Positions 25,550 through 51,139 of a stretch of 64,000 bases of DNA are shown here, one piece after another. Made by a program: the position numbers and the translations under genes. Position 1 is the first letter of the stretch. The number at the start of each line of letters is the position of its first letter. A model generated the notes under the pieces. That model saw only the letters and a list, made by a program, of their open reading frames with translations, was not told the DNA's origin and did not search any database. Origin of the DNA: a virus; IMG/VR virus record IMGVR_UViG_3300028829_002760, positions 45,935 to 109,934 of that record. One strand, written 5' to 3'.

Positions 25550-25582
25550 AAAGGGAGCCCTAACGGGTTCCCTTTTTTTTTT
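25550..25582. terminator. Terminator between the converging blocks (probably bidirectional)
   Basis: AAAGGGAGCCC-TAAC-GGGTTCCCTTT hairpin with a T10 tract, between convergent stop codons. Confidence 0.85.
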
Positions 25583-25728
25583 CAGTCCCAATTAAACTGT
25601 ATACTTATTATTGTAAAGAATAATTCAAAAGTATGATAATTTTCTTCATCGTCAGGTTCTAAGTAACTCCAACCTAATAAACATCTTGAATGAGGCCATG
25701 TAATATGTATACGTATGTCATATCCCAT
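25582..25728 (-). CDS. Small hypothetical protein (48 aa)
   Basis: Hand-translated MGYDIRIHITWPHSRCLLGWSYLEPDDEENYHTFELFFTIISIQFNWD; TAATG coupling to the upstream giant gene; ends at the terminator. Confidence 0.6.
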   Translation of the reverse strand: MGYDIRIHITWPHSRCLLGWSYLEPDDEENYHTFELFFTIISIQFNWD

Positions 25729-28700
25729 TATTGTCCTAATCTAGTTTGTGATTTTATCATATTTTTTATAGTATATTCTGGATCTTCAGAAGAACCTGTA
25801 CGTCCAAATACTTTACGGAACTTAGCCCATATTTTAAGGTCTCCTTTTTCTTTCCAACTCATTGTACCTACATCTCTCTTGTATCTATCCATCTCAGAAA
25901 AAGTTACAAAGTCTAAAACGTCCCCCATTATATCTGCATAAAGAACTATTGTATTATACCAAGCACTAGTTGTTTGTGTTATCATTTTAGTATAATCATC
26001 CATACCCAGGTTAAGACCTTTTATAGATGGTAGTGGAACAAATGCAGATGACTCAGCTTGAGCACCCAGTATTAGTAAAAGCATATGGTTAGATAAAAAT
26101 CCATAAGTATTAAATGTATCTTGTCCATATGCACCTGATCTCTTTTTAATTTTATCCCATTTATCATCATCTTCTGGATCAAATCCAAATAACATTAAAG
26201 CAAGTAAACTTAATCCTATTACTGCCATTCCTTCCCCAGCCATTTTTCTTAGTGATACTTTTTCTTCTGTAGATAAGTAAGCTGCATTTCTACCTGCAGA
26301 TTTTATTGTTTTAACTAAGGCCTGAAATGCTGTAACATAAAAACCTTTACCATATGATGTAGTTGCCCAATCATATCGTTCCCCTCCACGAGTCCATGTT
26401 GCAGTTTTAGAATCAAATCCAAATCTATTCATAAACATTGGAGTAAACCATTTTCTCATAAAGAAAAACATTTTATAAAGTAGTAACTTATTACCTTCAG
26501 CTTGTCCTATTGCATCATATGTACCAAATAGTTTACGTGATGTACCTTGAATTCTATTTTTTAATCCAAGAAATTTTTCTGACTTAGCAATAATTATTTC
26601 TTGACCATCTTCTAACTGTACAGCAGTTTTAATTCTATTTTTAGCTTTAAGTTCTTCTACAGGTATGTAATACTTTTTAGCTATCTCTTCTAAAGTTTCC
26701 CCTCTTTGATACTCATGAAATACTGGAAGATTACTCCACCCAGGATGTATCCCAGACTTTAATCTAATAATACCTTCCGCATCTTTTTCCCAAGCATCTA
26801 TATATCTCATTGTTTTTTTAGTACCATCAGTAAGAAGTTGATCTATTTTTTGACCAAACATAAAGGCCCCAAATAGAGAAACAGACACTTGCATCTCACC
26901 AAATTTTCTGTGCATATACATCCACTCCCCATTAGCTAGATCTTTTATTAATGATCTTTCTATTTCTTTACCAAACTGATCTTTAGATTTAAATACAGGA
27001 TCAAAAAATTGAATTAATTGAGTAGAGATGGCCCCTGGTCCAGTTTGATAAATTCCTTTAGTAGTCCACTCTAACATGGATTTTTCTGCCCAAGGTCTTG
27101 CAAGTGCAAAATCTTTAAGTGTAATAAATTCAGCTCCTAAACCTTCAATAAGAACTTGAACATATGCTCCATACTTGTTTTTTAAATCCGATGGGATATT
27201 AACCGCGAGAGATCCCATTGCAGATAAACCTTGCAAAGTTCCCATCATTTTACCAAACACAGGATGAGTTTCTTCAATACCTTCTACCAATCTACCAAAG
27301 TATTCTCTTTCTATTAAAGATTTAACTTGACCTAATCTATTGTTAGTAGAAAATTTCTTTTTAGCTTTTTGCAGCTGTCCTTTTAAGTTAAAGATACCTT
27401 TATCAAATTTTTCTAATTCTTTAGGAGCATTAGCTGGATCTTCTAATGTATCTAAGATAGAGTTAACAAGAGGTAAGCTTTCTAATAATTTAGATTGTGT
27501 TTGTACAGACAATGCATATCTAAATAATCCACTGAATGTATCTGCATCAGTAATTTCTTGATCTATATTATATATACCTGAAACAGGAACATAAGTAATT
27601 TGATTACCATCAAGATTAGTATTTACTAAGTTATTTTTAGCATCATAATTAAAATCTAATTCAGCATCCACTTTTGTTTTTACAAAAGATTGTCTAACCC
27701 ATTCTTTTACATTTCTACCAAGCTCTCCAAATCTTTTACCATAAGTTCCTTTTTGCATAGCTTGCCAAATATCACCTCTTTTTAAAGCATATCTAGGCAT
27801 ATCTAAGTAAAGCTTACTATAATTACTTACACCTTCTTGATTAGCTAAATGATATTCTGTAATAGCATCAATTAATTTATATTCAGCGTTGTTAGCTGAT
27901 TTCATCTGGAAGTATTTTTCATTTATAAACCTTCCATCTTTAGCACTATACTTTTGACCTGGTTGATATAATCTAGGTAACCATTGATTTTTATTATCTA
28001 TATACTTACCTACATAATCTGCTTTTTTAGCACCAAATGGTATAGTTCTGTATTCATCTTTAACTTCATTTCTTGAATGTCTAATACCAGGAGCTCCTTT
28101 TAATAAAATTGGCTCACCTGTATTTTTATCAATGATTTCAGTAAACTTAATGTATTTTTCATCAGTTGGTGATGATACGTTATTTGCAGAGGTTCTTTTA
28201 AAATAACTTTCATATGCTTTAGTTTCTCTATTATACTTTTGTATTGTATAATGATTTATTTCAAACCACTCTCTAAGCTTTTGATCTTCTTCTAATAGTT
28301 CTTGAAACTCATCTCCATTAACTACATCTTCAACTTCATCTTCTGATACTTCTTCTATATCTAATCTTGATAAATTATAGTTTAATGCTTCCATGTAATA
28401 TATAGTAGGAAGTTTCTCAGTCATTGATCCTAACTCAGCTATAATTTGATTCATTCTAGTAACATCCTGTCCAGATATACCAGTCTCTTCTACTTTATCA
28501 AGTAAATAAAAATATCTTTCTGCTTCAGGACTTCCACTTTCCAATGCACCGTCCGTGGCTTTTTGTGATAATCTATTAAACTCATCTGCATCATCTCTAG
28601 TTAATCCAGTTCTACTATCTATATTTGCTCTATAATCAGATATTTCTTGTTCTAGATCTCTAACTCTTTCAAGTCTATCATTACCCATATCAGAACTGTT

Positions 28701-31700
28701 TGGTTCTCCAGCTTGATCTTTATAAGTAAAAACTAAGTCTCCAATTATTTTATAAGCACCTGCTACATCAAACTGATTTCTACCAGTTTCTTGTATTCTT
28801 TCTTGTATTTCTCTAAGCTCAGTGAGAAGATCATTTTTCATTTCCCAATACTCAGGATCAATATCCATTCTTAGGTTTTGTCTTTCCCACATTTTCATTT
28901 CACGTTTATACTCTTTATCACCTGGAAGTATGTCTTTAGTAGCTAATAGATCTACAAATTCATTGTATGCACTTTGTAGCATTCCTTCCATAGGTCTCCG
29001 CTCATAAAATTCTTTTGTAGCTTCTCTGTGTTCTTGAAGTACATTTGCAATACTTAAATCATATATACCTTTAGCTTCATCATCTACTTTAGGTGTGCCA
29101 TCTTCATATGTTAATGCAAATAATTGTTGGTACTCTCTAAATGCTGCTTTTATAGTTGAGTATTCTTGAAACCTTTCTAACTCATTTTCCATTGAGTTTA
29201 CAAGGTTGTTATATGCAGCTAGTTTTTGTTTTCTTACATAGTATGCTAATTTACCTGCTTTAGATTGTTTAAATATATCATCTTTTTCATAAAACTCTGG
29301 AACAAAATCTTGCCACATATAATCTTTTTTAAATGTGTCAAATTCAAATTGTGCATCAGCAATTTTATTTACATCTTCACTCTTTTTAGCTTCTTCTAAA
29401 TTATATTCTAATAGATCGTAATGATATCTATAATCTTTAAAAGCCCCGTGATAAGACCATATTTTTTTTTCAATAGGTTTACCTTCTTTATCTACCCAAA
29501 ATACTGTATCTAAAAACCCTAACTTTTCCCTCATAGCAGGAGAATTTAATTTGGAAAATCCTACAGCAGGTAGTAGTTTTTCAAGTTTTTTTCTAAATTT
29601 TAGAGACTTTTCCCAAACAATATTTTCTACCTGTGACTTTTCATTCTCTATAAACATAGATAATGGGCCCACAACTACATCATTAGAAGAACTATAACTT
29701 TCTAACCATCTATTAAACCAAGTTATATCATGTGCTCCTCCAGTAAGTGCTTCAGTTATTTTATCTTTATCTATAACAATATCTTTGTATTCTTGTAAAA
29801 AACCTTTTAGTATATCTTTAGGAACTCCTTTTTCAATTAATGCGTCTATATCAGAATCTTCAATTGTATTTGTAGTTACTTTATAATAAAGATCATTTAC
29901 AGCATTTTCTAATTCAACAGGGTTTAATGCTCTTTTTAAAGCTGTACCAAGATTTTCTCTAAGTCTTTTTTCAACATACTCAGACATGTATCCTGTAATC
30001 TCTACATAAAACTGTACGTTGTTAGTTTTTAATAAGTTTGCAATATTAGTATTTACCCTAGTTATATTTTGTACAATTTCATTTAGATTGTTATAAAATG
30101 GATTTGATGAATCTATTATCTTTCCATCTATACTCAATGCTTCATTTATCTCTTCAACCATCTTTAACCAGGCTTTAGAGTTCTGCTTGTACAACATTAA
30201 TAAAGCTATAGTACTTCTATTATTAATGTTAGACTTATTTATCTTATTAATGTTGGACAGCATATTTTTTAACATGCTGTTTGTAGTGTCTAAAGTATTT
30301 ACTAATGCAGTTGCTCGTTGAAGATCTGCATCTAAAGATTCTTTTACGGCATCCAGTGCATTTTGAATTTTTTCATTTTCATCAAACTCCTCTACATCCG
30401 TGTTAAGGTAATCTTTTAATGTGCTAGTTACTTCTCTTAAGTATCTAGTAGTTCCTTTTTGAAATAATGTTTCTTTTAACATTGTTCTAGAAACCTTATC
30501 TCCTTTAAAATTTTCAGCCTCAGTTAAAACTCGTTTAGTGGTCTCATAAATCTGATCTATCATTTTTTGCATAGATTCTTTATCAGAGAACTTATCTAAT
30601 TCTTTAGCTCTAGCAAGTACATCTCTACCGAACATCACAAGATCTTCCTCTTTTAAGTTATTGGGAATATCTATATCTATTTCTTTTTCAAGGAGCATTT
30701 CAGATAAATCCTCTATTGAAGTATCCACATCTAGTTTAGAAATTTTTACTTTACTACCAAAAACTTTTCTAAGTATTTGCTTGATTGCGTTCAGTAATCT
30801 ATTAATAAAACTATCAAATCCCTCTGTGTTGATTTGATCGTTCATCTTATTGATTGCTTTTAATTGTAGTGCGTATGCTAATACTTCCTCCTTAAATAGA
30901 TCAGTATTTTGATCTAGTTCAGGGTATTGAGATTCTACATAAAATTTTATACCTTGACCCTCCTCAGTTGAGATAGCTTCTTTATAAAGTTTTTGGAATA
31001 AGATATTGTTCTTCATTCTTAATCCTTGAAGCAGCGGGTGTGAAAACTCATGTAATACTGTTCTAGGAGTTATGTTTTCTCCTACTAGATATACAGTACC
31101 TGCGTAATAGAAACCAGGTTCACCGTTATATTTGACCTGTCTGTTTTGTAATATCTTTGAGGCTTCTTCCTTAGTTATATTTTCGTATCTTACATCTAAA
31201 CCTACCGATAACCTTTGTGCAAGCATTTCAGCTAGTTGTTTTGATCTTTGATTTTGCAATTGTTCTACATTTAGTGATACAAAATCTACCCCATAAATAG
31301 CAGTATCTGTAACTTCTTTTGTAGTTTCTTTAGATTTAACTTTTTGATTAGCCGATATATCACCTTTTTTAATTTTAGCTAAAGTTTCATTAGCTTCTTT
31401 TAAAGCTTCTTCTTTAGATAGTCCAAGGTCATTTTGAAAACTCATTGTAGCCTGAATAACATCTTCTAATTGTTCTAATGCATTAGAATAATTATTTATA
31501 TTAAATAACCTTCTTATAAAGTCTAATAGTTCTTCAAATAAATTAGAAAACTCTTTTTTATTCATTGGAGGAACTTGTCTTAATAGCTCCTGAAACTCTG
31601 GATTTGTTAATGCTTCTGCAAATAATTCATCTGTATTTGTAAACCCATAAGGCATTGAAAACTGATATGCACCCATTAAAGATTTATCTTGCAATATTAT

Positions 31701-33389
31701 TACTTGATCTTTTAAGTACTTTAAAAACTTATCATAAGGATTTCTATCTGCTCCCTGCAATTTTTCCCTTCTTGTTTTATTAGGTAGTGCATCAAATTCT
31801 TTTTTCTTAAGTGTATCAACTCTATAGGATTCTGCTGCAATTGCAATTGTACTTAGTGAATGAACAATTTCATGCATTACTAATCTTTCTGGATCTACTC
31901 TAAATCTTTCACTATTATGATGTAGGTTTATATATTGTCCTGTAATATAACTAGCTTCAACATCAGCTATAAATGTATATTTATCATTTAATCTTTTAAC
32001 TTTAGCATTATAATATGCTGCAGTACCTTTCTTTTCTTCTGAAAATAAATGTAATACGTTTATAGGAATATTATTTTTTTCAGCAAATGGAATTAATTTT
32101 TTAGCTAAATCTTTATATTCACTATCAGGGTTATTAGCTATGTTTTGTAATATAGTTACAGTATCTGAAGTAGCAGGAATATGTAGGGATGAGTCATAAT
32201 CTGGAAATATTTTTTTAATCTTTTCTTTAGCCTCAATAGGAAGTACATCTTTTTTGCTAAACTCTATTTCTTGATTCATCCATGTTGAAGCCTGAAACAA
32301 CTTCCTCATTAAAATAGCCTTCTCTATATTAGGATTTTGTTGTAACTCTCTATTTTTAAATTCTAAAATTCTTGTTACCTGATTGTCAATTCTATCATTG
32401 ACTAATTGTTTCCAGTTAGGTATAATTTTTATAAAATTAGATAAGGTTTCAAGTTTTTTAGTTTTAGATTTTATAGCATTGCTATAAGTAAAAACTTTAT
32501 TTTTTGTAAATTTAATATTAGATTTTATTTTTTTTACAGCATTTCTACCTAAAAAAGCAATTGCTTGAGCATCACTTTTGAATTTATTTTCTTCATATAA
32601 AGATTTAAAATATTTTTTAATTGTAGCTTGATTCTTTTTTGAATAACTAGATATCTTACTTTTGTCTTTATATTTAATAAAACCATTTATAACATTTAAT
32701 TCTAATTCAAGTTCTTCAACTGCTTTTTTAGTATTATCTATTGCTTCTTTTAGATAATAATCATTTGATTTTATATCTTTTAATGCTTCTTTTATAGCAT
32801 TTGGAATTTCAGTAGATTTATTAAAAGCTTCTAGTCTTTCAGTAAGAGAAGACTTTCTATCTAATTGTTGAAGTTTTGTTTGTCTTAAAACTTCTCGACC
32901 AAATATATTTTCAAGTAAATTTTCTACTATAGTAGACATAACATAAGCGTCATCGTTATACCAAATATCTCTTTTAATACCTTTTCTATTTCTCATGTAA
33001 TAAGGTCTTTCTTTTAAAGAAAGCTTATTCATTATCATATTTGATACATCTTCTACTTCATCAAAAGACATTATAGATCTAACATCTTCTTCAGACATAA
33101 ACTTAATTCCAGGTGCAATTTTTTGAGATACATTTATAGAATTAAACTGAACTGAATTAAAATTATCCTGAAAAATTTCAAAAAGAGCTTCATTGGGAAC
33201 TGCTTCTGATAATCTTAAATTAAATAGTTTTTCACCAAGTGGTCTTAAACCATACTTTATCTCTGCTAAAGATGTCATCTTATCATTTAGATCATCAAAT
33301 AGCTTTTCATCGACTACTTTATTAACTTCATCAATAGCTCCTTGCTTTTGTAGATAGTTTACTGAATTTATTTGTACTTCACAGGCCAT
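25728..33389 (-). CDS. Giant virion cargo/ejection protein (2553 aa): two zincin-like domains, LysM, C-terminal hydrophobic segments
   Basis: HEIVH...ELFAE, HEFSH...EEVLA; LysM-like YQRGETLEEIAKKYYIPVEELKAKN...LEDGQEIII; hydrophobic MAVIGLSLLALMLFGF. Confidence 0.8.
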   Translation of the reverse strand: MACEVQINSVNYLQKQGAIDEVNKVVDEKLFDDLNDKMTSLAEIKYGLRPLGEKLFNLRLSEAVPNEALFEIFQDNFNSVQFNSINVSQKIAPGIKFMSEEDVRSIMSFDEVEDVSNMIMNKLSLKERPYYMRNRKGIKRDIWYNDDAYVMSTIVENLLENIFGREVLRQTKLQQLDRKSSLTERLEAFNKSTEIPNAIKEALKDIKSNDYYLKEAIDNTKKAVEELELELNVINGFIKYKDKSKISSYSKKNQATIKKYFKSLYEENKFKSDAQAIAFLGRNAVKKIKSNIKFTKNKVFTYSNAIKSKTKKLETLSNFIKIIPNWKQLVNDRIDNQVTRILEFKNRELQQNPNIEKAILMRKLFQASTWMNQEIEFSKKDVLPIEAKEKIKKIFPDYDSSLHIPATSDTVTILQNIANNPDSEYKDLAKKLIPFAEKNNIPINVLHLFSEEKKGTAAYYNAKVKRLNDKYTFIADVEASYITGQYINLHHNSERFRVDPERLVMHEIVHSLSTIAIAAESYRVDTLKKKEFDALPNKTRREKLQGADRNPYDKFLKYLKDQVIILQDKSLMGAYQFSMPYGFTNTDELFAEALTNPEFQELLRQVPPMNKKEFSNLFEELLDFIRRLFNINNYSNALEQLEDVIQATMSFQNDLGLSKEEALKEANETLAKIKKGDISANQKVKSKETTKEVTDTAIYGVDFVSLNVEQLQNQRSKQLAEMLAQRLSVGLDVRYENITKEEASKILQNRQVKYNGEPGFYYAGTVYLVGENITPRTVLHEFSHPLLQGLRMKNNILFQKLYKEAISTEEGQGIKFYVESQYPELDQNTDLFKEEVLAYALQLKAINKMNDQINTEGFDSFINRLLNAIKQILRKVFGSKVKISKLDVDTSIEDLSEMLLEKEIDIDIPNNLKEEDLVMFGRDVLARAKELDKFSDKESMQKMIDQIYETTKRVLTEAENFKGDKVSRTMLKETLFQKGTTRYLREVTSTLKDYLNTDVEEFDENEKIQNALDAVKESLDADLQRATALVNTLDTTNSMLKNMLSNINKINKSNINNRSTIALLMLYKQNSKAWLKMVEEINEALSIDGKIIDSSNPFYNNLNEIVQNITRVNTNIANLLKTNNVQFYVEITGYMSEYVEKRLRENLGTALKRALNPVELENAVNDLYYKVTTNTIEDSDIDALIEKGVPKDILKGFLQEYKDIVIDKDKITEALTGGAHDITWFNRWLESYSSSNDVVVGPLSMFIENEKSQVENIVWEKSLKFRKKLEKLLPAVGFSKLNSPAMREKLGFLDTVFWVDKEGKPIEKKIWSYHGAFKDYRYHYDLLEYNLEEAKKSEDVNKIADAQFEFDTFKKDYMWQDFVPEFYEKDDIFKQSKAGKLAYYVRKQKLAAYNNLVNSMENELERFQEYSTIKAAFREYQQLFALTYEDGTPKVDDEAKGIYDLSIANVLQEHREATKEFYERRPMEGMLQSAYNEFVDLLATKDILPGDKEYKREMKMWERQNLRMDIDPEYWEMKNDLLTELREIQERIQETGRNQFDVAGAYKIIGDLVFTYKDQAGEPNSSDMGNDRLERVRDLEQEISDYRANIDSRTGLTRDDADEFNRLSQKATDGALESGSPEAERYFYLLDKVEETGISGQDVTRMNQIIAELGSMTEKLPTIYYMEALNYNLSRLDIEEVSEDEVEDVVNGDEFQELLEEDQKLREWFEINHYTIQKYNRETKAYESYFKRTSANNVSSPTDEKYIKFTEIIDKNTGEPILLKGAPGIRHSRNEVKDEYRTIPFGAKKADYVGKYIDNKNQWLPRLYQPGQKYSAKDGRFINEKYFQMKSANNAEYKLIDAITEYHLANQEGVSNYSKLYLDMPRYALKRGDIWQAMQKGTYGKRFGELGRNVKEWVRQSFVKTKVDAELDFNYDAKNNLVNTNLDGNQITYVPVSGIYNIDQEITDADTFSGLFRYALSVQTQSKLLESLPLVNSILDTLEDPANAPKELEKFDKGIFNLKGQLQKAKKKFSTNNRLGQVKSLIEREYFGRLVEGIEETHPVFGKMMGTLQGLSAMGSLAVNIPSDLKNKYGAYVQVLIEGLGAEFITLKDFALARPWAEKSMLEWTTKGIYQTGPGAISTQLIQFFDPVFKSKDQFGKEIERSLIKDLANGEWMYMHRKFGEMQVSVSLFGAFMFGQKIDQLLTDGTKKTMRYIDAWEKDAEGIIRLKSGIHPGWSNLPVFHEYQRGETLEEIAKKYYIPVEELKAKNRIKTAVQLEDGQEIIIAKSEKFLGLKNRIQGTSRKLFGTYDAIGQAEGNKLLLYKMFFFMRKWFTPMFMNRFGFDSKTATWTRGGERYDWATTSYGKGFYVTAFQALVKTIKSAGRNAAYLSTEEKVSLRKMAGEGMAVIGLSLLALMLFGFDPEDDDKWDKIKKRSGAYGQDTFNTYGFLSNHMLLLILGAQAESSAFVPLPSIKGLNLGMDDYTKMITQTTSAWYNTIVLYADIMGDVLDFVTFSEMDRYKRDVGTMSWKEKGDLKIWAKFRKVFGRTGSSEDPEYTIKNMIKSQTRLGQ

Positions 33390-33390
33390 G

Positions 33391-42300: not shown

Positions 42301-43764
42301 TTGGATTCTATCTCTATTTATGTTAGAATTTTCTACTCTAGCATTATTGATAAAGATTTCAAAATAATCTTTTCTTTCTTCAGGTGTTAACTCTCTACCT
42401 TTTAATTTAGCTGTAGTAGTAAGAACTTCTGCAATTTTATCTGCTAATTGCTCATCCATATCTCCTCTTTGAAGTTGGAGTTTAAATGGTTCAGTATTTT
42501 CAGTTCCAGGTATTTTTCTTTGTACAATAATATATTGACTACCTTGTCTTTTACCTACTGTTTCTGCAGTATAGTTTTTTAATTCTTCTTCAGTTACATT
42601 AGCTTCTTGTAAAGTTACAGCAACCTTTTTACGATTAGATTGTCCTAATGTTCCAGATACAATAGGTAATATAATAGTCATGTCGTCATTTTCCTCAATC
42701 GTTGTTCTTAAAGCATAAAGAGTATTTAACTCTATCTTTTGACGTTCAGCTATTACATCTTCTAATTTTTGTAATTGTTTCTCAGTTACTTTACCACCAT
42801 TATTTTCTATAAGTTCTGCTTGTTGTTGAGCTAATACTTTTGGCTCTACCATATTGTATTTTCTATAAGCAGTGTTTGATAATAAAAGTTTACCTTTTTC
42901 CTTAACAACTCTTCTAAGATATTGATATACAATTCTTCCCTCTTCTGGATTATCAGTTAAAGTGCCATCTTCTCTAAAATAAAGAAAGTTACCTTCTTTA
43001 TCAGTTATAACAGCAGTAATACCTCGACTTTTAGTCTCTTTGTTAAGATATGCTTCATCCGATGTAGTTAATAGTTTAGGATCAATATTTCTTGTTTGCA
43101 TAGCAGTTAATGCTATTTCAACATCCTCATACATAATAGGTTCAGTAATATCACTTCTGTTCCTAGCTATAAGACCTATTGCCTTTACTACGTCTGAAAA
43201 TAATTTTTTTTCTGGATCAATTCTATCTTTATCTTCTTCTGAAACAGTTTCTGGATTAGCAGCTATAGCAATTTGATATGTGGTTGTCCATGCACTTGTT
43301 ACTTTTGCACCATTAAATTGATTAAATGACCAAAATAATAATTCGTCAATTGGAGGATTTGGATCTATAGATGTATCTTTTCTTGTCTTATTAGCATCTT
43401 TTATTTCAGCATCTATTTCATCTTTAGATTTTTTTTTGGTTGCTAATGCTTTACCAACTTCAGTAAGATCTTTAAAATTTTTCCTTTGTTTATTAAGGGC
43501 TGTAAAATCAAAATCTTTATCAACCAGATAATCATTTACTTCTTCATCAAGATTTACTAAGTTAAAGATGTCTGGAATAGCTTGAGCATAGTACAAAGCT
43601 TTTACCTCATCCTCTGAAGCTTCTTTAACTGCAGCATAGATATCTTTTATAGTTTGATCTAAATCAAACTTAGGCAGTCTGTTATCATTAATTCTATCTA
43701 TTATTTCTCCATATAGAATTTTATATACATCTCCTACTTGCTTTTCATTTAAACTACAGGCCAT
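33391..43764 (-). CDS. Virion-packaged two-barrel RNA polymerase (crAss-like vRNAP, 3457 aa) with zincin and NADAR-like accessory domains
   Basis: ADGQGWIS, HKFSL, ESGSKV, GVRIPVQG and catalytic GGDFDIDKL (about 36890-36915), as in phi14:2-type vRNAP; HEAWH...EEDLAE; C-terminal LSNLA...SVEHAYQ. Confidence 0.92.
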   Translation of the reverse strand: MACSLNEKQVGDVYKILYGEIIDRINDNRLPKFDLDQTIKDIYAAVKEASEDEVKALYYAQAIPDIFNLVNLDEEVNDYLVDKDFDFTALNKQRKNFKDLTEVGKALATKKKSKDEIDAEIKDANKTRKDTSIDPNPPIDELLFWSFNQFNGAKVTSAWTTTYQIAIAANPETVSEEDKDRIDPEKKLFSDVVKAIGLIARNRSDITEPIMYEDVEIALTAMQTRNIDPKLLTTSDEAYLNKETKSRGITAVITDKEGNFLYFREDGTLTDNPEEGRIVYQYLRRVVKEKGKLLLSNTAYRKYNMVEPKVLAQQQAELIENNGGKVTEKQLQKLEDVIAERQKIELNTLYALRTTIEENDDMTIILPIVSGTLGQSNRKKVAVTLQEANVTEEELKNYTAETVGKRQGSQYIIVQRKIPGTENTEPFKLQLQRGDMDEQLADKIAEVLTTTAKLKGRELTPEERKDYFEIFINNARVENSNINRDRIQVKVLEKLKRKDYKVYINGKPISNDVLFTEEGKQMIKNHLLNAIPKKLKAGQKKEGENGYFPANVHYKNSLKGKTFTDYIFEGDVIKTQTVKHFDAIKKYIKLEYTEDLLDYEKGLNAYLNYTIPEGLLEDVTDIEVGRARVLREKKTTPKKKNTGKRFTVKRKRKPKTDKDKVAPKSKKKKKIGFKRRLSEDETESQAKEQDIKDNPATRNHLLDDVLKDSKSSETRYKKKGLDRAKDMYLDKIFTSKADRKAAEKWWASSPLSKYISLERITEITNSNAFARWSGYGITLFEGDGGTSVDVYHEAWHGFSQLFLTKDEKVNLYQEIKSLDKYKNKSFFQIEEDLAEQFRTYAKSKGKGKVKGFLARIFDKIYKFLQRLFGKTTKNEVTTDLMNVESVKELYDKLYRASENPELLSNLTPSMDNVMFGELNRAKTINENFSIQESKQVVDAMDSMASLIFEQYNQDFNTTTGAFDLLKDEDNKKELYRDIYDKFERLRLSYIKKVEEDIEVISDPKFLEELELLDKITDNYIGPNDVFEGGEKENVIAYHLEKSRFKVLRDQYTEVEDPTNISESSLFKLKDDNSVSAKKLAKEETMMLLASLFKTEIENDQSVRKRGLFGLPELQDVDITWNRLAKILEGSYDEMDMYIRIFDNMDNYPELQQLLDVLPNPFRVLNGPEYSSREEFKLETAFWQDFKKPRIPYIQLNLEKDEDNEYKAKLGRANFDTYQVTRDWKSNFITSDPISNPYIETVRVNGIETNILNTAKVVKDFGKNGVFNYRKANDFLKAIGIVLDESSIAIEEIIESTENPFSTRFGVDRMYEVVKIVNKSDEPAALDFKKDPISMLMTGLPESLREDESQSQDVSSRLRTLAEIQSMFSDSYSNFSVQTPEGTRVWEHMVDSSVTRIVNAINTAKNWQELTTDEADLNGKFKHMRWLNEANNTFSVFSKLLGSIFDLNPMSSTYGEKLSDTKITLQHVAGTQTKVKGNYTGDSTASMDATSKFLQEIHTMLLNGVEEFMRHASKNTALGMTVDGTIQTYNGKKDNKLYVDIESFVGYSDGEIKAYDIIEGYIAAEANRIVRFQQQKDKFKNYAGYNRKVKRKDENKTTVMAGQAFTAFDDVLKEDVQDELYKILDKASKDVNNNFNLMDELDDQFDLREKIRSNVYEYFSKDTKENYERLQEAKYIDEGLYQRFELINPGLTQKDIETSLMSAYTYNSFIHKMETVALAYGDLVQYNHAKEEFHKRNAGLASGGKGFRADQRAQIYVSSLKKYYADRLGYESRNYDGTFRTAILKEITIKSEMFDEYRKSIYDSVYERTGSKTVAKNIADKAIEEYGKMDIADGQGWISFETYRQLKELESNWSTEQEQLYRRVAMGENITAEDIVEFFPSYKLQYFGNIEATGLPVNSFHKFSLAPLIPGVAKAGTPLYDLHQKMMKDQMDYVLMESGSKVSHIGTGDVVLNEDGSFNKDSEFTVNTIYAEFLKNQTEVNSEYKFKTIFSTQLRKLILEGLYERGVIKSTKYEEITNERVKRYIDHVEEYTELLKLELLEEMGYEETSPGQYKAKDKSSTAKLLNIIRTNLEREDVLSDDLIEFIDVFDNSGKIQHDLSFHPESGKIEKLILSMINKRVIKQKVNGEPLVQVSVGMFQNQFAKPDLRKATKDEIAKWASASYLLPTYHKKSDGYTAAAKVMIAMQGTYYNLFNLEYENDESIGVYNEDNELNMDKSLERLNEKIKDDSWLDANNGANRKAITLVGVRIPVQGLNSMEFAEVFEFLPPQAGNIIVPPAEIVAKSGGDFDIDKLTIFMNTLDEDGSVIKRSYSDLQSIKDLRGTDNFLGAVKNQKAALENELINDIKEILELPDNYASLIMPNGTFILKGIADQLAQYVSKYNPKKNKMTKDTGEMSPTRVLEALYNVYKHESNIVGKKTLGLGAIENTFNVIMNAIGAYMPNTYKIKEVLRESNMRLRHNKMTSKNGDEVISISDMYDVDGVNKVADVISQMMNGWVDVEKDAWVFFIQGNYEVAPTLLYMIKAGVPVKEAIYFVSNPLVRDYVTEQRLFKSTFAEALGKDVGASGLAKYKAASEVIRKYFDFDELSPRSKNDARYNKGQQLLDKFFSKKRKNHFTESQMLKAIKENDTESDLVKSMFLHYLELEQQIGGYTKLKMASNPDTSTKTTLSDVEQTEANLDELFYDSRVPLEVVNAMRNDSILRSFFNGPLALAVSRPLFELRYHPEISRFLISKKDSIRMDLENTFPGQNVEMFSNVFRNDIVSFILQNAIRKYNSKDGFMSLDLQTKIPTKLVKKLNRGAFIKDGVLYMDMKQLEKEFKKSAWEEDSDVKNSYEDRGLYPLHPSTFRTNSQTNFDEYLKFVAQREYLRYLNPLTKDYAKTKTFKDELNLTKEIMPELTQEKAVRYAYEKLLAIEALDNSFNMFHLFESENAFAIRFMIMLQDNPELGRTYNVVKKFKLDGGKEDGVYNIYLADKDFDSDKSNLYTDDLKKLANPGYSKVEDPIENLRISKMFDYLNLYSFLQTGLNKTKLNFTNVVDYNNFLSILENESKDFISALEKNGQGILSNFYDMFLDINARTNQNKNRFKDYISDMELDTVKSTETTETTELETGVKPTGTINVYWGQAESKTSTKILSNLAPRTFTWEGREYGSVEHAYQSNKSGEFDQSTYDKYIDAGGYGTKIRGKKVKKSFDNLQLMKDLVVESFLQNRNSEAATKLLQYEKFTHNTNYVIDKAFLEGLKLAQNALLDRGAKTVIDTTNMDTEVVKRRLGLRNTEETDVYTYNDNNATNTFYYSNISKNNPDVVFLHNTSVFEIRPEQKDNGIVLGGSSYFMTEVGDMSINFPTDLYSHIKDGRKVELPPSEYDNLKKIWENRIATVKKIQEKNGKIAFPEYGLGDRNTMPQELFVYLSKRLFEDFQFVNPGSTKFEEINKMVGIVQGITDEEILLQLELEEDPFKCS

Positions 43765-43765
43765 T

Positions 43766-46700
43766 TTAACATTCTTTAGAATTATCTTTTAAATCATTGA
43801 ATCTAGAATTAACATCAGAGTTTCTAGAGTCCTCTTTAAGTTTATTAGTTAATTTAGTGTCATTAGCTAAATCTTTTACAATATCTTTTGACTCATTTGA
43901 TCCCTCTATATCTACTGGATCTACCTCTACTTCTGGAATAGGTTGAGTTGCTTCTTTTGTTGTTTTATCAAAATTATTCATTAGATCTTCTTCTTTAATG
44001 GTAATCTGTTCATTACTTAATATATTTCTTAAACGTACAGATTGTTTGTTGACTCTTACAATTTCAAAAATTGTATTTTCTTCGTTGTCAAAGATAGGAT
44101 TTTTAAGAATAAGATACTCACCTTTACTCACAGTATCTAAAGACATCTGTGTATTTAATTGCTCTATCCTAGCATCATATGCATCTTTAAGAACACCAGC
44201 ATTTTCTTTATTTTTTAATACCTCTAAAACAGCTGCTTGATAGACTTCTTTAATATTATCTAGGTTAGCACTATTAATCTTTTCAACTAACTTATCAATG
44301 TCTGTCTCTGTTTTTATAGGTTCAGATTCTGTTGATAAAGTTGGATCTACTTGAGTTCTTGCTCCTTTTACTATCTTTTTGAGTTCTTCTCTTGAAGATT
44401 GTCCAGGAACGTCCTCTGGTTTTCCTGATTCAGTCCTTTCATTCTTAGATACACGAGTCCTTTTCTGTACTTTTTGCTCTCCTGTGAAGATTTTTTGGAC
44501 TTTTCTGAAGTTTTTGATTTTGCCATCTTTTGTTAATTTAATTAGTTCAAGATCATTTTGTAATTCTAATAAAGCATTTATTTGATTTTGTATGTCATCA
44601 GTAAGATCACCTCTATTTAATATACTATATCCTAATTGATATAGTTGCTCTACTGTATCTTCTATCCATAATTGAATTTTAAGTAAATCTGTAGAATATA
44701 CAGGAGACTTAACATTTCCATCTAATAATCTATCTAATGCTTCTGGATAATTCTCTGCTAGTATTTCAGTAATAGATTTAGATACAGCAGCAGACAAAGA
44801 TAACTTATCTATTTCTTTTAAGTCTTGTATTTCATCTAGTTTATTAGACTTAGCAGTTAATCTTTGGAAATTATTAGGTAATCTGTTTAATGCAAAAATA
44901 TAATTGTCAGCATTAGAACCATATATATATGTTTTCTTATTACTGTCGTATAAAGATTTTCTTCTAGAACTTAAAGAATCTATTTCAGATTTTAATTCTG
45001 ATATCCTACTTAAAATTTTATTTCTTTTAAACTCATCTGTTTCGTTCTGAAAATTAGATCTAAGTCTTCCAATCTTATTACCTAATTCACCAATTTCTTT
45101 ATCTATTTTAGACATATCAGCATCATTAGACATATATGACAATGCTGTGATTTCTCCTGTTTGATTTCTTAGTACATCATATCTTACACCATTAATACTT
45201 GCTACAGTATCTTCTGCATTAGAAAATGATGCATCTACAACCTCTCCTTCAATAACAGATACTTGACCAATATTTTCTACTGGTGCCATTATTTGCAATC
45301 CTACATCAGCAAGTGTAAGTTTTTCATTAACTATATTGACATTTAGCTTTTCTATTGGGAATACTTCAAATAAACCTTCCTGAGACTCAATTGCTTTTTC
45401 AAGTTTCTCTATCGTAGAATCAAGTTCATCTAACTCTTCTTTACTTCCATATTCTTGTGCTGCAATTCTATCTAATTTAAAAGTATCTAAAGTCATTTGC
45501 ACTAACTCTAGATCTACTTTAGTAGCAACTTCAATAGCAAATGTTCCATCTGCCATTTGAATAAGTTTCCCTACACGTCCTTTGTACATTACATTTTTAC
45601 CTATATTATCTTCTAATGTAAGTTTTGAAGGATCTGTTCCCTCATATCCTGGGGTAGATTTAGTAGTTTCTTTAGTTCGGACAACAAGATTTTCAGGTTC
45701 AGTTTTTACTACACCAAACTCTTCTATTTCAGGTAAGTATTCTAGATCAACTGTATCTTGACCAGTAGGAACTATACCTGCTAATTCTATATCCTCTATA
45801 TAACCAACTCTTTTCTTTTTAGTTTTATCTAATGTAAGACTAAAAGGCATTAGTTTCAATTCTGGAGTAATTCCAGTACTATTATGGAACATATAACCAT
45901 ATATAGATTGCTGTGCCCTAAAATATATAGACTTCTCATATTTACTTTGATCTGGCTTACCAAAATTTTGCCACTTTCTTTCAGTACTTGTTTTAATATC
46001 TACAATAGCAACTGTACCATCTTCCTTAACAAGAATTAAATCAACCTCACCAGTAATACCATTATCTCTTAAAGTTCTATCAAATAGTTTTACATTCTCC
46101 GATAATATTATATAACTACCATCAACAATACCAAGTCTAAATCTAGTTACAATACCACCACCACTTTCTGTAGATACTGGAGCAAATAATTTATCAAATG
46201 CTTTTCTTGACATAACATCTGATATTTTTGTCATTTTACCTTTTATCTCTAACTCAGAGTCATAAGTAAATTCACTAAAGTTAGATTTAGTAGATGCATT
46301 AGGAGTTAGAAATATTCTTATTAAATCATCAACAACATTACCTGCATCAGAAGATTCCCTAAATGCTTCTCTTTTTAAGATTTCTTTTAACCCTTTAAAA
46401 CTACCATCTGTTTCTAATGAATTTCTAATAGCAGCAAGTTTTTCTGGATAAGCAAATGCAGGATAACCTGGACTTTCTCTAGTACCTTTACGATAAACTC
46501 TTTCTTCAAAAGCTATCATAAATGCATTTACCTTATCTTCTGGAGCTACACTATCATCATTAAAAATTTGATCATACAGTTTTTCTATTGGGGACTTTTT
46601 AAGAATTTCACCCGTCTCTTCATCTACTTCATCTTTTAACCCTTGGTAGATAAAAGCATCTGTTTGTTTTATATCATTCTCAACTTCTTCTGCTACTTTA

Positions 46701-49700
46701 GTTGTTCTTTCAGGTCGTGCTTCTGAGTCTTTAAACTTTCTCCCAATCTGATTACCATCTTCATCATAAATAGGTTCAAGCTCATCTTGCTTGTTAATAA
46801 TGTTATCTTGTATAAGATTTACAGTTTCCTCTGCAATATTTCTTGGTGCAGCAACATCTACTCTTGCTTTTAAATATCCTTTTAATGAAGCTAAATCTGA
46901 TTCAATATCTTTAATATTTGCTTTAGTAAGTTTTACTTTTTTACCTGATTTATTAGGATATGATCCATCTTTAAGAAACTTTTCAAATATTTTTATTACT
47001 TGAGCTATTTCATATGTAGTATTTTCAGCACCAATCTGTTTATTAATAAACTTTAACTTAGGAGGTTCAGCTAATCTTTTTGCTTTTTCTTCAGCTTGAA
47101 GTTTAGATTTTTCATTGATGTTTGTAATCAATTCTCCCTGACCCTCTAACCAATTTTTTCTTAATCTTTCATATTGAATCGGATCATTATCTTTAAGTTC
47201 TATATCCTCTTCTAAAGTATCTACTAAATACTCATCAAACAGTTTTGTTATCTCATCTTGATACTCTTGATCAAAATCATCAAATTCTGTTTTAGTAGTA
47301 TATACTTTAGGAGTAAATTCATCTACACCTTCTTTTTCAAACTCAGCTTTAACATCTGCTATAAGTTGATCATATTTTTCATTTATTTGATCAACAGCTT
47401 CTTGAAACTTAATATAAGGTTCAGTTTCTTCAATGTTAATTGTTTTTTTAGAAGGTTCTTTATTTAGCTCTAACTCTACTTCAGATAATTTGTTAGCTGC
47501 ATAATCTCTATATTCTAAAGCCAATAAAGTAGTAGTAACCCTTGTATCAGTATCAGTAATATTTTCAAATTTTAAACTTAACTCTTGTGCTTCTTTTATT
47601 CTTTCTGGATTATTTGCAAACTCACGTTCTTTTTGTGCAAGAAATTCAGGACCTTTTATATTGTCCTTTCTCATTATTTTATCTGCAATAACGTCAGCAG
47701 CTGCTTGTATTTCTACAGCATCAATAGATTCTCGTAATGTTTTTAATGCATCTTCTAAAATCTTTTTATCAGCTTCAAGTTCTGCTCTCCTATCTTCATT
47801 AAGAGTTTCACCTGCAATACGTTTTTTCTCTTCAGACTCATATTCATCTTGAGTTATTCCAAACTTCTCTTCAAACTCTTTGTTGTATTTATCTGTCTCT
47901 TTTTTAATTAAAAGATTTCTTTCATCATTTAATTCTTCAATTTTTTTATCTAACTTTTCTCTTAAACTAAGTTTTTCACCAGCAGGTCTTTTTTCATCTA
48001 ATATTGCAGCACGTCTTAAAACATCCATGTAATCTTCATATAGAAGACTACCTTTATTAATCATTCTATTAGTCTTTACGTCTATAAAATATTCTGGATA
48101 ATAATTATGATCCTCAACCCATTTAGCAAATTCTTCTAAGTCTAGATAAATACCTTGGTCAGCCAAAGTGTTTAAAAGAGTGTTTCTTTCTATGGCAGAA
48201 ATTTCTTGATTAACTATATCTTTAACGAGATCTTCTCTATTATCGTATAGTTTTTTCATAAACCTGAAGTTTCTAACTACATGTTCATAAAAACCATTTG
48301 GACTAGATAGTAATGTTACATAACTATTTAGTACAGAATTTTCATTTCTTAAAAGAAGACTATCAAGTAATGCGTCATACATAACATCTATACCACCTTG
48401 ACTATCAATCTCATTTTGTATGTTAAGTCTATCTTGATTAGTCTCACCTAAACCAATTAATAAATTTTTAAATGATTCCTTAAATGTATCTTTATTTTTA
48501 GTTGATCCTTTTTCAAATTCATCAAGAATTTCTTTAAAGATTTTTAAACTTACTTCTTCATCTTTACCTTTAACATCATCAAGCTGTTCAATTTCCTCTA
48601 TTTTCTTTTTTAGAAGTTCACTACTGGTAAATAGTTTATATGCTCCTTCTAAATTTTCATTATATCTAGTATATAATTCTAAAAGTTCTCTTTTATTACT
48701 TAATTCAGCAATTGCTTCTTGTGTTGTTACAGACTCTAAAGTTTCTATATCAGTTTTTAACATTTCAATTTCTCTAACTAAACCTTGAGGATCAATTAAA
48801 ACACTCATGTCATTCATAGGTGTTTGTCCCAAACTAGTTATAGAATTAAACTGTTTATAAAGTGAATTAATTCTACCTAAGTTATCATCAAAAGACTCAT
48901 GTAAAAAAGTATATGTATTCAGCGCAAGACTAAATGCTTTATTATATACTTGAGCCATTCTATATTCCTCAGTATCTTTCTCATAATTATTAAGATCAAT
49001 TCTGAGATCTTTCATTTTTTCTTTAGCTGTGTTATATCTAAATGCAGTTTTTTCTGCTTCTTTCAATGTTTTACCAAATCTTTCTAAAGCTTTTTCACCT
49101 TGTCCTGGTTGTAAATCCCATGCTTCTTCAATATCACGTGCAGAAGCTTGTTCATATTTTTTATAATGTTCCAAGAACATATTGAATGTGCCTCTTTCTA
49201 AAGATGAATATAATGCAGACTGAAATGCTGCAAACTCAGTATCTCTTATTTCTTTTGTAGTATGTTCTTCAGGATTATCAATTACTTTGGACATTAGTCC
49301 TTGTTGAGCATGATTACTAATTCTAGGATCAAAAAAGAAATTTGCATTTTTATATAGAGTATTTAATTCACTTACTATATCATCTGCCATCTGCTCTCTA
49401 TCATTCATGTAAGTTTTAAACTGAGCATCTTTTTTAAAGTAATCATTATACCCAACTGTAGCATATGATTTAATTTTACCAGGAGCTTGTAGTATTGTAC
49501 CCATTAAAAAACCTGACATAAATACTTCAAATCCTTGAGCACTCCATTGTTTAGCAATAGCATCTCCTAGTATACCTGATGCATATCTTATGTTTCTAGA
49601 ATCAGGATTTTTAAAAGCTTCTAAATAATAATGTTGTGTAGCTTCTTGTAAAACATCTTGAGCAACCTCTTGAACACCTTCCATTACATTAGCTTTAAAG

Positions 49701-51139
49701 TAATTTAAACCTACTTTACCATATGTAGATGGTTTAACTAATGATTTTATAGCATTAACTAAATTAATCTTTTGTTTTACAAATTGACCTTCTAAAGCTT
49801 TTTTACCAGGTTCAAATAATACTTGATACTCTTTACCTACAGTAGTTATAGTTTTACCAAATGCAAACTTAGGTACACCTTTTAAAAAACTAGCTTTTGT
49901 TATAGAAGGGAAAACTAACTTATTAGTATAGTATATTAAAGCAGTATTATTATGTGTATTCCACCAAGATCCTGCTGAAGACTCAAGCATTAACTTTTCC
50001 TGCTCTTCTAAATTTGGAGCTCTATTTTCTTTTTCTACAAATGCATTATATAACTTATCATATAATTCATTTTTTGTAAAACCACCTTCTAATTTACCTT
50101 CTGACAATGCTAAGTTCATAGCCATAACATCATGCCAAAATGCACCAGCAGTTGTAGTACTTCTTGCTACATTACTTAAATTACTAGTATTTTTTAAAGC
50201 AGTAGCTGTATTTTGTAAGGGGTTTGCAAAATTACCAAAGTTTGTACCAGCTTTTTTCCAATATTCTTTTGCTTTAGATATATTAGTATAAGATTTAACA
50301 TCGTCTAATAGTTTAGCTGTACCTTTTGCAAGATTTGCAAAACCTTTTGGTAAGTTTAATAATTTTCTTAAACCAGTAGAAGCACCAGCTGCAGCACCAC
50401 CAGGTCCTCCAAATAAACTACCAATTAATGCACCCTCCATAGCACCTTCTGTTAAGATACCCATAGAATAAGATGCAGAGTTTAAAAGATTTACTGTAAA
50501 TCCTCCAAATCCACCTTTAGTAGATTGAGCTAATGCATTATAGTATTGATAATCTCTAGCTCCTTCAGGATCAGCTGCAAATAATCCATCACCACTTATT
50601 ATACTTTTGTAAGATTTAATAGGATCAATTATACCTTTAGTAAACATTGGCCAAGCAGAGTGTGTTGCCCATCTACTTAAATCATCACCAAATGTAGTAT
50701 TTTGATTAAACCAGGTTTCATTATCTATTAAAGGGTGGAAACCTACTTTATTAAATGTTTCTTGACCGTAAGCTTTATATCTATCTCTAAATGTACCAGT
50801 AGGTGATGCATCATAAGCATAGGGTTCAGCATAGTTACTATAATCTGTAAGACTATTTATATTTTGCTGTTGTTTAGCAATCATAGAAGCAAAAGGTGAC
50901 ATTGCACCTTGTTGACTTAATTGATTTATAGCAGATGGAGGTACATTAGGTGATACACCTGCAGTACCATCTTTAATAAAATTGGTAGGATTGACAAAAT
51001 TATCCTGCCACTTTAAAGTTGGATCTATAGGTTGCTCAATTTTAGCAGGATCTAAAAAATCACTTTGTGCTGCTAATTGATTAATTTGAGCATTTTGATT
51101 ACCTAAGTTTTCTGCACCTTCTATTGTTTCTTCAGCCAT
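43766..51139 (-). CDS. Giant virion cargo protein (2457 aa) with N-terminal Gly-rich hydrophobic region, coiled coils and a PD-(D/E)xK nuclease domain
   Basis: GALIGSLFGGPGGAAAG; SEN...GEVDLILV...IVDIKT...QQSIY (about 45890-46110). Confidence 0.8.
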   Translation of the reverse strand: MAEETIEGAENLGNQNAQINQLAAQSDFLDPAKIEQPIDPTLKWQDNFVNPTNFIKDGTAGVSPNVPPSAINQLSQQGAMSPFASMIAKQQQNINSLTDYSNYAEPYAYDASPTGTFRDRYKAYGQETFNKVGFHPLIDNETWFNQNTTFGDDLSRWATHSAWPMFTKGIIDPIKSYKSIISGDGLFAADPEGARDYQYYNALAQSTKGGFGGFTVNLLNSASYSMGILTEGAMEGALIGSLFGGPGGAAAGASTGLRKLLNLPKGFANLAKGTAKLLDDVKSYTNISKAKEYWKKAGTNFGNFANPLQNTATALKNTSNLSNVARSTTTAGAFWHDVMAMNLALSEGKLEGGFTKNELYDKLYNAFVEKENRAPNLEEQEKLMLESSAGSWWNTHNNTALIYYTNKLVFPSITKASFLKGVPKFAFGKTITTVGKEYQVLFEPGKKALEGQFVKQKINLVNAIKSLVKPSTYGKVGLNYFKANVMEGVQEVAQDVLQEATQHYYLEAFKNPDSRNIRYASGILGDAIAKQWSAQGFEVFMSGFLMGTILQAPGKIKSYATVGYNDYFKKDAQFKTYMNDREQMADDIVSELNTLYKNANFFFDPRISNHAQQGLMSKVIDNPEEHTTKEIRDTEFAAFQSALYSSLERGTFNMFLEHYKKYEQASARDIEEAWDLQPGQGEKALERFGKTLKEAEKTAFRYNTAKEKMKDLRIDLNNYEKDTEEYRMAQVYNKAFSLALNTYTFLHESFDDNLGRINSLYKQFNSITSLGQTPMNDMSVLIDPQGLVREIEMLKTDIETLESVTTQEAIAELSNKRELLELYTRYNENLEGAYKLFTSSELLKKKIEEIEQLDDVKGKDEEVSLKIFKEILDEFEKGSTKNKDTFKESFKNLLIGLGETNQDRLNIQNEIDSQGGIDVMYDALLDSLLLRNENSVLNSYVTLLSSPNGFYEHVVRNFRFMKKLYDNREDLVKDIVNQEISAIERNTLLNTLADQGIYLDLEEFAKWVEDHNYYPEYFIDVKTNRMINKGSLLYEDYMDVLRRAAILDEKRPAGEKLSLREKLDKKIEELNDERNLLIKKETDKYNKEFEEKFGITQDEYESEEKKRIAGETLNEDRRAELEADKKILEDALKTLRESIDAVEIQAAADVIADKIMRKDNIKGPEFLAQKEREFANNPERIKEAQELSLKFENITDTDTRVTTTLLALEYRDYAANKLSEVELELNKEPSKKTINIEETEPYIKFQEAVDQINEKYDQLIADVKAEFEKEGVDEFTPKVYTTKTEFDDFDQEYQDEITKLFDEYLVDTLEEDIELKDNDPIQYERLRKNWLEGQGELITNINEKSKLQAEEKAKRLAEPPKLKFINKQIGAENTTYEIAQVIKIFEKFLKDGSYPNKSGKKVKLTKANIKDIESDLASLKGYLKARVDVAAPRNIAEETVNLIQDNIINKQDELEPIYDEDGNQIGRKFKDSEARPERTTKVAEEVENDIKQTDAFIYQGLKDEVDEETGEILKKSPIEKLYDQIFNDDSVAPEDKVNAFMIAFEERVYRKGTRESPGYPAFAYPEKLAAIRNSLETDGSFKGLKEILKREAFRESSDAGNVVDDLIRIFLTPNASTKSNFSEFTYDSELEIKGKMTKISDVMSRKAFDKLFAPVSTESGGGIVTRFRLGIVDGSYIILSENVKLFDRTLRDNGITGEVDLILVKEDGTVAIVDIKTSTERKWQNFGKPDQSKYEKSIYFRAQQSIYGYMFHNSTGITPELKLMPFSLTLDKTKKKRVGYIEDIELAGIVPTGQDTVDLEYLPEIEEFGVVKTEPENLVVRTKETTKSTPGYEGTDPSKLTLEDNIGKNVMYKGRVGKLIQMADGTFAIEVATKVDLELVQMTLDTFKLDRIAAQEYGSKEELDELDSTIEKLEKAIESQEGLFEVFPIEKLNVNIVNEKLTLADVGLQIMAPVENIGQVSVIEGEVVDASFSNAEDTVASINGVRYDVLRNQTGEITALSYMSNDADMSKIDKEIGELGNKIGRLRSNFQNETDEFKRNKILSRISELKSEIDSLSSRRKSLYDSNKKTYIYGSNADNYIFALNRLPNNFQRLTAKSNKLDEIQDLKEIDKLSLSAAVSKSITEILAENYPEALDRLLDGNVKSPVYSTDLLKIQLWIEDTVEQLYQLGYSILNRGDLTDDIQNQINALLELQNDLELIKLTKDGKIKNFRKVQKIFTGEQKVQKRTRVSKNERTESGKPEDVPGQSSREELKKIVKGARTQVDPTLSTESEPIKTETDIDKLVEKINSANLDNIKEVYQAAVLEVLKNKENAGVLKDAYDARIEQLNTQMSLDTVSKGEYLILKNPIFDNEENTIFEIVRVNKQSVRLRNILSNEQITIKEEDLMNNFDKTTKEATQPIPEVEVDPVDIEGSNESKDIVKDLANDTKLTNKLKEDSRNSDVNSRFNDLKDNSKEC

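Follow-up and report, generated by a model that had tools for sequence, protein, structure and literature searches.

The 64,000-nucleotide stretch of viral DNA analyzed here (the window) spans bases 45935-109934 of the 109,934-base IMG/VR virus record IMGVR_UViG_3300028829_002760, which is ~92% complete, and contains three adjacent giant genes on its minus strand, labelled A, B and C in the order of the chain proposed below. From sequence comparison, their products are best explained as a block of cargo proteins packaged by an uncultured crAss-like phage, with a homolog of the crassvirus virion RNA polymerase (vRNAP) as the middle member. The three proteins are almost devoid of cysteine, and the four cysteines that they do contain are situated at the termini facing each other across the A/B and B/C gene junctions, an arrangement that is kept in related phages and that follows the splitting and fusion of the genes. 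These facing cysteines probably form inter-protein disulfides in the particle, linking the three proteins in a single unbranched chain.

Cysteine positions in the three giant proteins

The three genes and the codons of their four cysteines are as follows (open reading frame list and computed cysteine count).

43766-51139, minus strand: gene A, 2457 residues, first member of the proposed chain
43769-43771, minus strand: TGT codon of Cys2457, last residue of A
33391-43764, minus strand: gene B, 3457 residues, vRNAP homolog, middle member of the proposed chain
43756-43758, minus strand: TGT codon of B Cys3, in the gene start ATGGCCTGT
33397-33399, minus strand: TGT codon of Cys3456, second-last residue of B and part of the invariant DPF[KT]C motif at the C-terminus
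25728-33389, minus strand: gene C, 2553 residues, last member of the proposed chain
33381-33383, minus strand: TGT codon of C Cys3, in the gene start ATGGCCTGT

Together the three proteins contain 4 cysteines in 8,467 residues, all encoded by TGT. The only cysteine of A is its last residue (...NSKEC), those of B are residues 3 (MACS) and 3456 (...PFKCS), and that of C is residue 3 (MACE). The facing termini at both the A/B and the B/C junction are therefore tipped with cysteine, while the N-terminus of A and the C-terminus of C are not. From the cysteine content of the 33 plus-strand open reading frames in the same window (1.23%), ~104 cysteines would be expected in the trio, corresponding to a Poisson probability of ~3e-39 for four or fewer, and four cysteines would be placed by chance within 3 residues of precisely these ends with a probability of ~2e-12. 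At both junctions (43756-43771 and 33381-33399) a spacer of 1 nucleotide separates the stop codon from the next ATG, and the B and C genes begin with the identical 9-mer ATGGCCTGT, which contains the alanine codon GCC, uncommon in DNA of 28-30% GC.

A preliminary description of this DNA had located these cysteines by eye, and its positions in A, B and C are correct on every point. Its premise, that N4-type vRNAPs are free of cysteine, is stated in the literature (PMC11445570), and its claim that the junction cysteines are under selection is upheld, chance being excluded and the facing pairs being kept across more than 100 related contigs. On this comparison, the terminal-cysteine pattern is under strong selection.

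Conservation in related loci

Related loci were assembled in two sets. The first consists of 43 viral-contig loci fetched with B as query, at 30-76% identity, and the second of 80 loci obtained with a profile built on more divergent B proteins, with 14 contigs common to the first set. In the first set, the chain members contain 155 cysteines in 294,953 residues, 150 of which lie within 10 residues of a terminus, and cysteine is present on both sides in 74 of the 76 junctions, the remaining two being frameshifted gene copies. In the second set, cysteine is found on both sides at 134 junctions, on neither side at 16, and on one side only at none. The expectation that a C-terminal cysteine would always pair with an N-terminal cysteine of the next gene was thus borne out in 74 of 76 and then in 134 of 134 junctions, with no true one-sided case. 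Fifteen of the 16 junctions lacking cysteine are at the boundary between A and an upstream protein of ~1050 residues, and the other is in locus L172. Because this boundary has cysteine on neither side in the relatives, the upstream protein is placed outside the chain. The outer chain ends never bear cysteine in the related loci.

The geometry of the junctions is variable, with spacers of -8 to 18 nucleotides, the downstream cysteine at residues 3-6, and the upstream cysteine 0-9 residues from the end. In A-type proteins, a cysteine is located at most 10 residues from the C-terminus in all related loci with a complete end. The cysteine of the B C-terminal DPF[KT]C motif is an invariant column in a 14-row alignment (A1), as is Cys3 of C in a second 14-row alignment (A2), where it falls within ~70 conserved N-terminal residues. 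Several apparent exceptions were rejected on inspection. A 'split' B without cysteine in L016 and a B without N-terminal cysteine in L025 are both frameshifts, and L002, a candidate locus without A, contains the end of a truncated A (...NSKTC).

When 1.84 billion cluster representatives were searched with a profile of the B C-terminal domain, 165 proteins were found, in all of which the domain is at the C-terminus. Among the matches of at least 2000 residues, a cysteine is present in the last 10 residues in 54/54, and internal cysteines number 15 in 187,558 residues. The B-type representatives with a C-terminal but no N-terminal cysteine are P0022, P0063, P0072, P0120, P0122, P0123, P0133 and P0147, four of which form one clade with 37-39% identity (alignment A3). 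A search with P0122 as query found no related loci in viral or metagenome contigs.

Relationship to cultured crassviruses

Two cultured crassviruses, phi14:2 and crAss001, contain a homologous middle protein, the same three-gene block after the tail genes, and the same terminal-cysteine pattern. A tblastn search with B found phi14:2 g066, annotated as 'catalytic RNA polymerase subunit' (E 7e-7), together with giant proteins of ~30 Crassvirales records; the polymerase core of B gave no Pfam, PHROG or PDB sequence match. Gene A occupies the same block position as phi14:2 g067 and crAss001 gp47, and gene C the same position as phi14:2 g065 and crAss001 gp49. A could not be assigned to a family by PHROGs, Pfam or PDB sequence search, which gave only a weak, sub-threshold PD-(D/E)XK match. 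The open reading frame map places the three co-oriented giant genes after tail/muzzle genes, with the replication module convergent on them and the DNA polymerase gene on the opposite strand, its end adjoining C, a layout like that of phi14:2. The proteins of the window are larger (2457, 3457 and 2553 residues, compared with 1797, 2180 and 1421 in phi14:2), and are ~24% identical to their homologs over a core of ~300 residues. No close relative of the block DNA was found by megablast against the phage collection.

In phi14:2 the cysteine rule is followed exactly: g067 has cysteine at residue 1797 of 1797, g066 at residues 3 and 2179 of 2180, and g065 at residue 3, and the products of g067-g066-g065 are annotated as virion proteins by mass spectrometry. 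In crAss001, cysteine is found at residue 2339 of 2341 in gp47, at residues 5 and 2404, plus 1334, in gp50, and at residue 5 in gp49. The crAss001 gp47 gene is on the opposite strand, away from gp50 and with no chain gene after it, and still keeps its C-terminal cysteine. The three crAss001 proteins were identified as virion cargo by mass spectrometry and placed in the cargo zone of the capsid, which has room for ~six copies of each protein, and their partial unfolding is thought to be necessary for passage through the tail (PMC10172136). According to the same structural atlas, disulfides occur in crAss001 virions in the tail and the gp57 dimer, and the order of extrusion is probably set by packing and mutual interactions, with no mechanism named.

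Gene fission, fusion and rearrangement

The related loci contain several natural experiments in which the number of chain members is altered. Six loci contain an extra member between B and C, of 242-261 residues, whose third and last residues are cysteine, and the same two cysteines are present in extra members of 655 residues in L043 and 754 residues in L119. The 655-residue protein was rejected as an independent split, being at the same junction as that of L018 with a 430-residue insertion. In a sister clade on the tree, the C-terminal module of the extra protein forms part of B, in a fusion that lacks internal cysteine. One module is located in B in L026 and L041, in a separate protein in L043, and in C in L033, and throughout these relocations the cysteines stay at the protein ends. 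The cysteines thus follow the ends of proteins, and not the module.

Fusions have the reverse effect. Fusion of the three proteins in some phages was already noted in the phi14:2 preprint, and the polyproteins of the Suoliviridae (A+B) and Intestiviridae (B+C) contain the same modules in the same order, with a peptide bond replacing the cysteine pair at the fused seam. The window, unlike these crassviruses with a fused RNA polymerase, has all three genes separate and both cysteine pairs present. In the Suoliviridae (cr1_1, cr50_1, cr118_1, cr7_1, cr56_1 and cr114_1), A and B form one protein of 4272-5443 residues, with cysteine 0-3 residues from its C-terminus and at residues 3-6 of the next protein, so that only the B/C pair is left. 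Seven of eight A+B fusions (these six together with cr273_1 and cr108_1) have no cysteine within ~100 residues of the estimated seam. In the Intestiviridae (cr110_1 and cr271_1), the fusion joins B to C, and the A/B pair alone is left: A has a penultimate cysteine, while the B+C fusion starts with MSC and has no cysteine at its C-terminus. Extra members are cysteine-tipped at both ends, and the pair is absent from fused seams; the preliminary description had suggested that splits and fusions be examined.

The fusions also bear on which cysteines are paired. Since they remove cysteines as adjacent pairs, A-B and B-C pairing fits the data, while B-B and A-C pairing, ring closure of B and independent homodimers do not.

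Individual fused genes have features of their own. In cr7_1 (L102, 5533-21864), whose stop-recoded protein has 13 cysteines in total, Cys 2570 and 2625 flank the estimated A/B seam at ~2610; these may be a relic of the former junction pair, or may be due to chance given the 13 cysteines. The annotated giant genes of cr7_1, cr56_1, cr114_1 and cr273_1 (L102, L103, L106 and L108) contain 36-148 in-frame stops under table 11, and a stop codon is therefore read as an amino acid in these phages. The terminal-cysteine rule holds in three of the four. In cr110_1 (L104, 14050-14100), the next methionine, 14 codons on from the annotated start of the 4417-residue fusion, gives MSCTVK, matching cysteine at residue 3, and the annotated start is probably 14 codons too far upstream. 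In cr108_1 (L098, 21807-22096), ~290 nucleotides with stops in all frames interrupt the polymerase catalytic motif (...AKAGSD / ..DIDK). This interruption is probably a self-splicing intron, and no cysteine is present at the pseudo-junction that it creates within the motif.

A structural precedent and other ejection proteins

A disulfide formed by a cysteine pair of this kind has been physically seen in a virion only in cyanopodophage A4, an unrelated podophage, where cryo-electron microscopy of the pre-ejectosome identified a bond between gp27 Cys1715 and gp26 Cys5 (PNAS 2025, PMC12002296). Within a pentameric ring, the bond stabilizes the C-terminal helix of gp27 where it is docked into a gp26 cleft (PMC12002296). 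In the genome of Anabaena phage A-4L, Cys1715 is the only cysteine of gp27 (1717 residues) and Cys5 the only one of gp26 (1114 residues). As with the A/B and B/C neighbors of the window, adjacent genes encode two large proteins, ejection proteins in A4, each with one cysteine near the terminus that faces the other, and the window trio has the same layout of otherwise cysteine-free neighbors with cysteine at the upstream C-terminus and the downstream N-terminus. A4 belongs to a different phage family (Saffermanviridae, with a T7-like core) and has one link, without an RNA polymerase in the chain, whereas the window would have two links around the polymerase. Comparison of A, B and C with gp27 and gp26 by blastp and phmmer gave no match at E <= 1, and because of this lack of sequence homology the likeness is regarded as a functional analogy, not family membership. 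A4 suggests that podophages unrelated to the crassviruses may have come upon the same device. The A4 study treats the bond as a local stabilizer, and gives no rule on termini, gene fission or gene fusion (PMC12002296).

Ejected phage proteins are generally kept free of cysteine. The N4-like phages (vRNAP gp50, or gp71-73 of DEV) and T7 (gp15 and gp16) have giant injected proteins in which cysteine is suppressed, as it is in the window trio. T7 gp15 has no cysteine, and gp16 none over the part read. T7 gp14 (L109, 729-1319) has a single cysteine at residue 2, with no facing partner evident. For N4-like phages, cysteine suppression in ejected proteins has been published, with passage through the disulfide-catalyzing periplasm as the suggested reason (PMC11445570). 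The window trio shares this trait of N4 gp50, with 4 cysteines found against the ~104 expected, but not the architecture of the N4-type polymerase, which is one polypeptide of ~3,500 residues with a T7-like single-subunit core and no reported terminal cysteine pairs. By contrast, the window cargo consists of three proteins (up to four in relatives), with each split marked by a cysteine pair, and its polymerase matches the crAss two-barrel type.

The proposed disulfide chain

In the proposed arrangement, the C-terminus of A would be bonded to the N-terminus of B, and the C-terminus of B to the N-terminus of C, inside the particle. Three separately translated proteins would thus become an unbranched chain of ~8,500 residues with A, B and C following one another in the N-to-C direction, which would be the equivalent of the single polyprotein encoded by other crassviruses. 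Such a chain may serve to hold the proteins 1:1:1 and end to end, so that they can pass out through the narrow tail as a single thread. The parts would be freed by reduction once in the host cytoplasm, whereas fused forms would need proteolysis instead. The unbranched linear topology appears to matter, because the cysteines sit at the very tips of the proteins and exchange freely with a peptide bond; this topology is what passage of a chain through a narrow tail would require. For crassviruses, we infer the bond itself, the ordered threading and the release by reduction.

In its fullest form, the proposal is of a redox-cleavable 'pseudo-polyprotein', a thread of 8,000-10,000 residues that passes the tail from N- to C-terminus, following gene order, and is cut by the reducing cytoplasm into working parts, including the RNA polymerase, with peptide bonds and disulfides swapping at the seams over evolution. 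We put this forward tentatively, as a possibility that falls somewhat short of being probable. The end-to-end chain was first suggested in the preliminary description, and its comparative predictions (facing pairs, also after splits and fusions) have stood; the pattern likewise survives the rearrangement in crAss001. Its accompanying statement that nothing of this kind had been described was too strong, the A4 gp27-gp26 disulfide having already been published (PMC12002296). A multi-link chain around a polymerase, together with the fission and fusion rule, is undescribed in the literature searched; full-text searches on crassviruses and crAss-like phages found no description of the cysteine pattern. 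Among 19 further window proteins scanned, none was a thiol oxidase or thioredoxin.

A number of observations weigh against the chain. The host cytoplasm is reducing, so that the bonds would be possible only after assembly or lysis, and gut crassviruses live under anaerobic conditions. Cysteine is absent from the first 10 residues of eight of the 54 long B-type representatives, the last cysteine of the cr273_1 fused protein is 49 residues from its end, and gut lineages tolerate 2-15 internal cysteines. Neither the crAss001 atlas (PMC10172136) nor the phi14:2 vRNAP preprint mentions the terminal cysteines of the cargo. In A4, the bond lies on the portal in a pentameric ring, with no demonstrated linear thread. 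The outcome of complex prediction, carried out with the last 161 residues of B and the first 260 residues of C and a 14-row alignment of each, is also counted here for its weakness. The pair scored 0.37, compared with 0.00 for the best of three controls, and the runs gave at least 22% contact agreement and a predicted local distance difference test value (pLDDT) of at least 60 for the partner. Of 80 solved complexes, 58 reached the pass mark, as did 2 of 110 mismatched pairs, but with scores of 0.60 or below it was reached by only 7 of the 80 solved complexes and by both of the passing mismatches, and the prediction thus gives weak support for an interaction between the two ends.

Alternative explanations

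The disulfides might instead act purely as a static brace, stabilizing a folded cargo assembly in the capsid and being opened or bypassed before ejection, with no linear threading or ordered pull-through. The A4 bond, holding the gp27 helix in the gp26 cleft of a pentameric ring (PMC12002296), is of this kind, and the room for ~six copies of each protein in the crAss001 cargo zone is compatible with such an assembly. The conservation of the B C-terminal domain and of the first ~70 residues of C is likewise as expected of docking surfaces, and the weakly supported complex prediction (0.37 versus 0.00) points in the same direction. However, a bond with a bracing role might be located at any point of an interface, whereas the cysteines here are 1-10 residues from the extreme ends of the proteins at more than 200 junctions, and in the fused lineages the pairs are interchangeable with a peptide bond, which fits the need for an unbranched chain. 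On balance we regard a static brace as unlikely.

Another chemistry or another partner for the cysteines is less likely again. Homodimers, a B ring combined with an A-C bond, attachment to the portal or other virion parts, or a shared metal site could be envisaged, and the total number of cysteines would be even under any pairing scheme. Under B-B and A-C pairing, however, each fusion would break both pairs, while the fusions observed drop adjacent pairs; independent homodimers would not predict that the outer ends never have cysteine and that 0 of 150 junctions are one-sided; two thiols are too few for the usual zinc site; and the bond in the A4 structure joins neighbor to neighbor. Lipid anchoring and native-ligation-type chemistry were dropped, there being no signal peptide or lipobox and the cysteine not being residue 1.

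The pattern could also be imagined as a nucleotide-level signal for translational coupling or restart around TGT-stop-ATG-GCC-TGT, with no role in the protein, as the 1-nucleotide spacer at both junctions and the identical 9-mer ATGGCCTGT at both downstream starts might suggest. Against this, spacers in relatives range from -8 to 18 nucleotides with the cysteines at varying positions in differing sequence contexts, the neighboring junction with the upstream 1056-residue gene has no such cysteines, and crAss001 gp47 keeps its C-terminal cysteine without a following chain gene. Since the rearranged crAss001 locus keeps its terminal cysteines, a purely nucleotide-level explanation is excluded for practical purposes, and we give it hardly any credence. 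As a nucleotide motif, ATGGCCTGT occurs only at the two starts, but 9-mers with one mismatch are no commoner than in shuffled sequence; the motif was rejected mainly via the crAss001 locus. The disulfide-linked chain thus remains the explanation that we favor.

Other features of the window

Further features of the B and C proteins, and the gene upstream of A, are listed below.

36895-36909, minus strand: DFDID catalytic-type motif of B, residues 2286-2290, in the context ...AKSGGDFDIDK
41377-41391, minus strand: HExxH (zincin-type) motif of B, residues 792-796, by motif match only
31860-31874, minus strand: first HExxH motif of C, residues 506-510, by motif match only
31038-31052, minus strand: second HExxH motif of C, residues 780-784, by motif match only
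26589-26708, minus strand: LysM peptidoglycan-binding domain of C, residues 2228-2267 (Pfam PF01476, E 3.5e-5, 24.1 bits, cut-off 20.9)
51153-54323, minus strand: upstream protein of 1056 residues, with zero cysteines, outside the chain

The DFDxD sequence is named as a signature of the crAss-type vRNAP in a preprint (bioRxiv 10.1101/2020.03.07.982082). No profile match to a zincin was obtained for C, in which the two HExxH sequences are motif matches and LysM is above the Pfam cut-off; the protein also contains one hydrophobic helix. The 1056-residue protein and a 575-residue protein (62062-63789) are cysteine-free members of the virion module with no family match, and may be further ejected cargo. 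Between them is a protein of 1046 residues with 14 cysteines.

A GC-rich hairpin, GGGAACCC GTTA GGGCTCCC, is located at 25553-25572, with an A run before it and a T run after it. Lying between the convergent ends of gene C and a plus-strand gene for a 417-residue protein, it looks like a two-way terminator. Elsewhere in the window, a 288-residue protein (4255-5121) matches the Pfam family of spore photoproduct lyases (PF20903, E 6.5e-25), a repair enzyme that is unusual in a phage.

Implications

The terminal-cysteine rule is of practical use in the annotation of crAss-like genomes, where it can help to find the true starts and ends of genes and to separate real junctions from frameshifts or introns. 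The proposed chain bears on the means by which megadalton protein cargo of podophages passes a channel of a few nanometres, and on what sets the order and number of the proteins. One cysteine pair per seam, lost upon fusion by a peptide bond, is a rule that can be read from sequence, and the mechanism is testable in two cultured phages. If true, the chain would explain the free variation of crassvirus RNA polymerase blocks between one, two, three and four genes.

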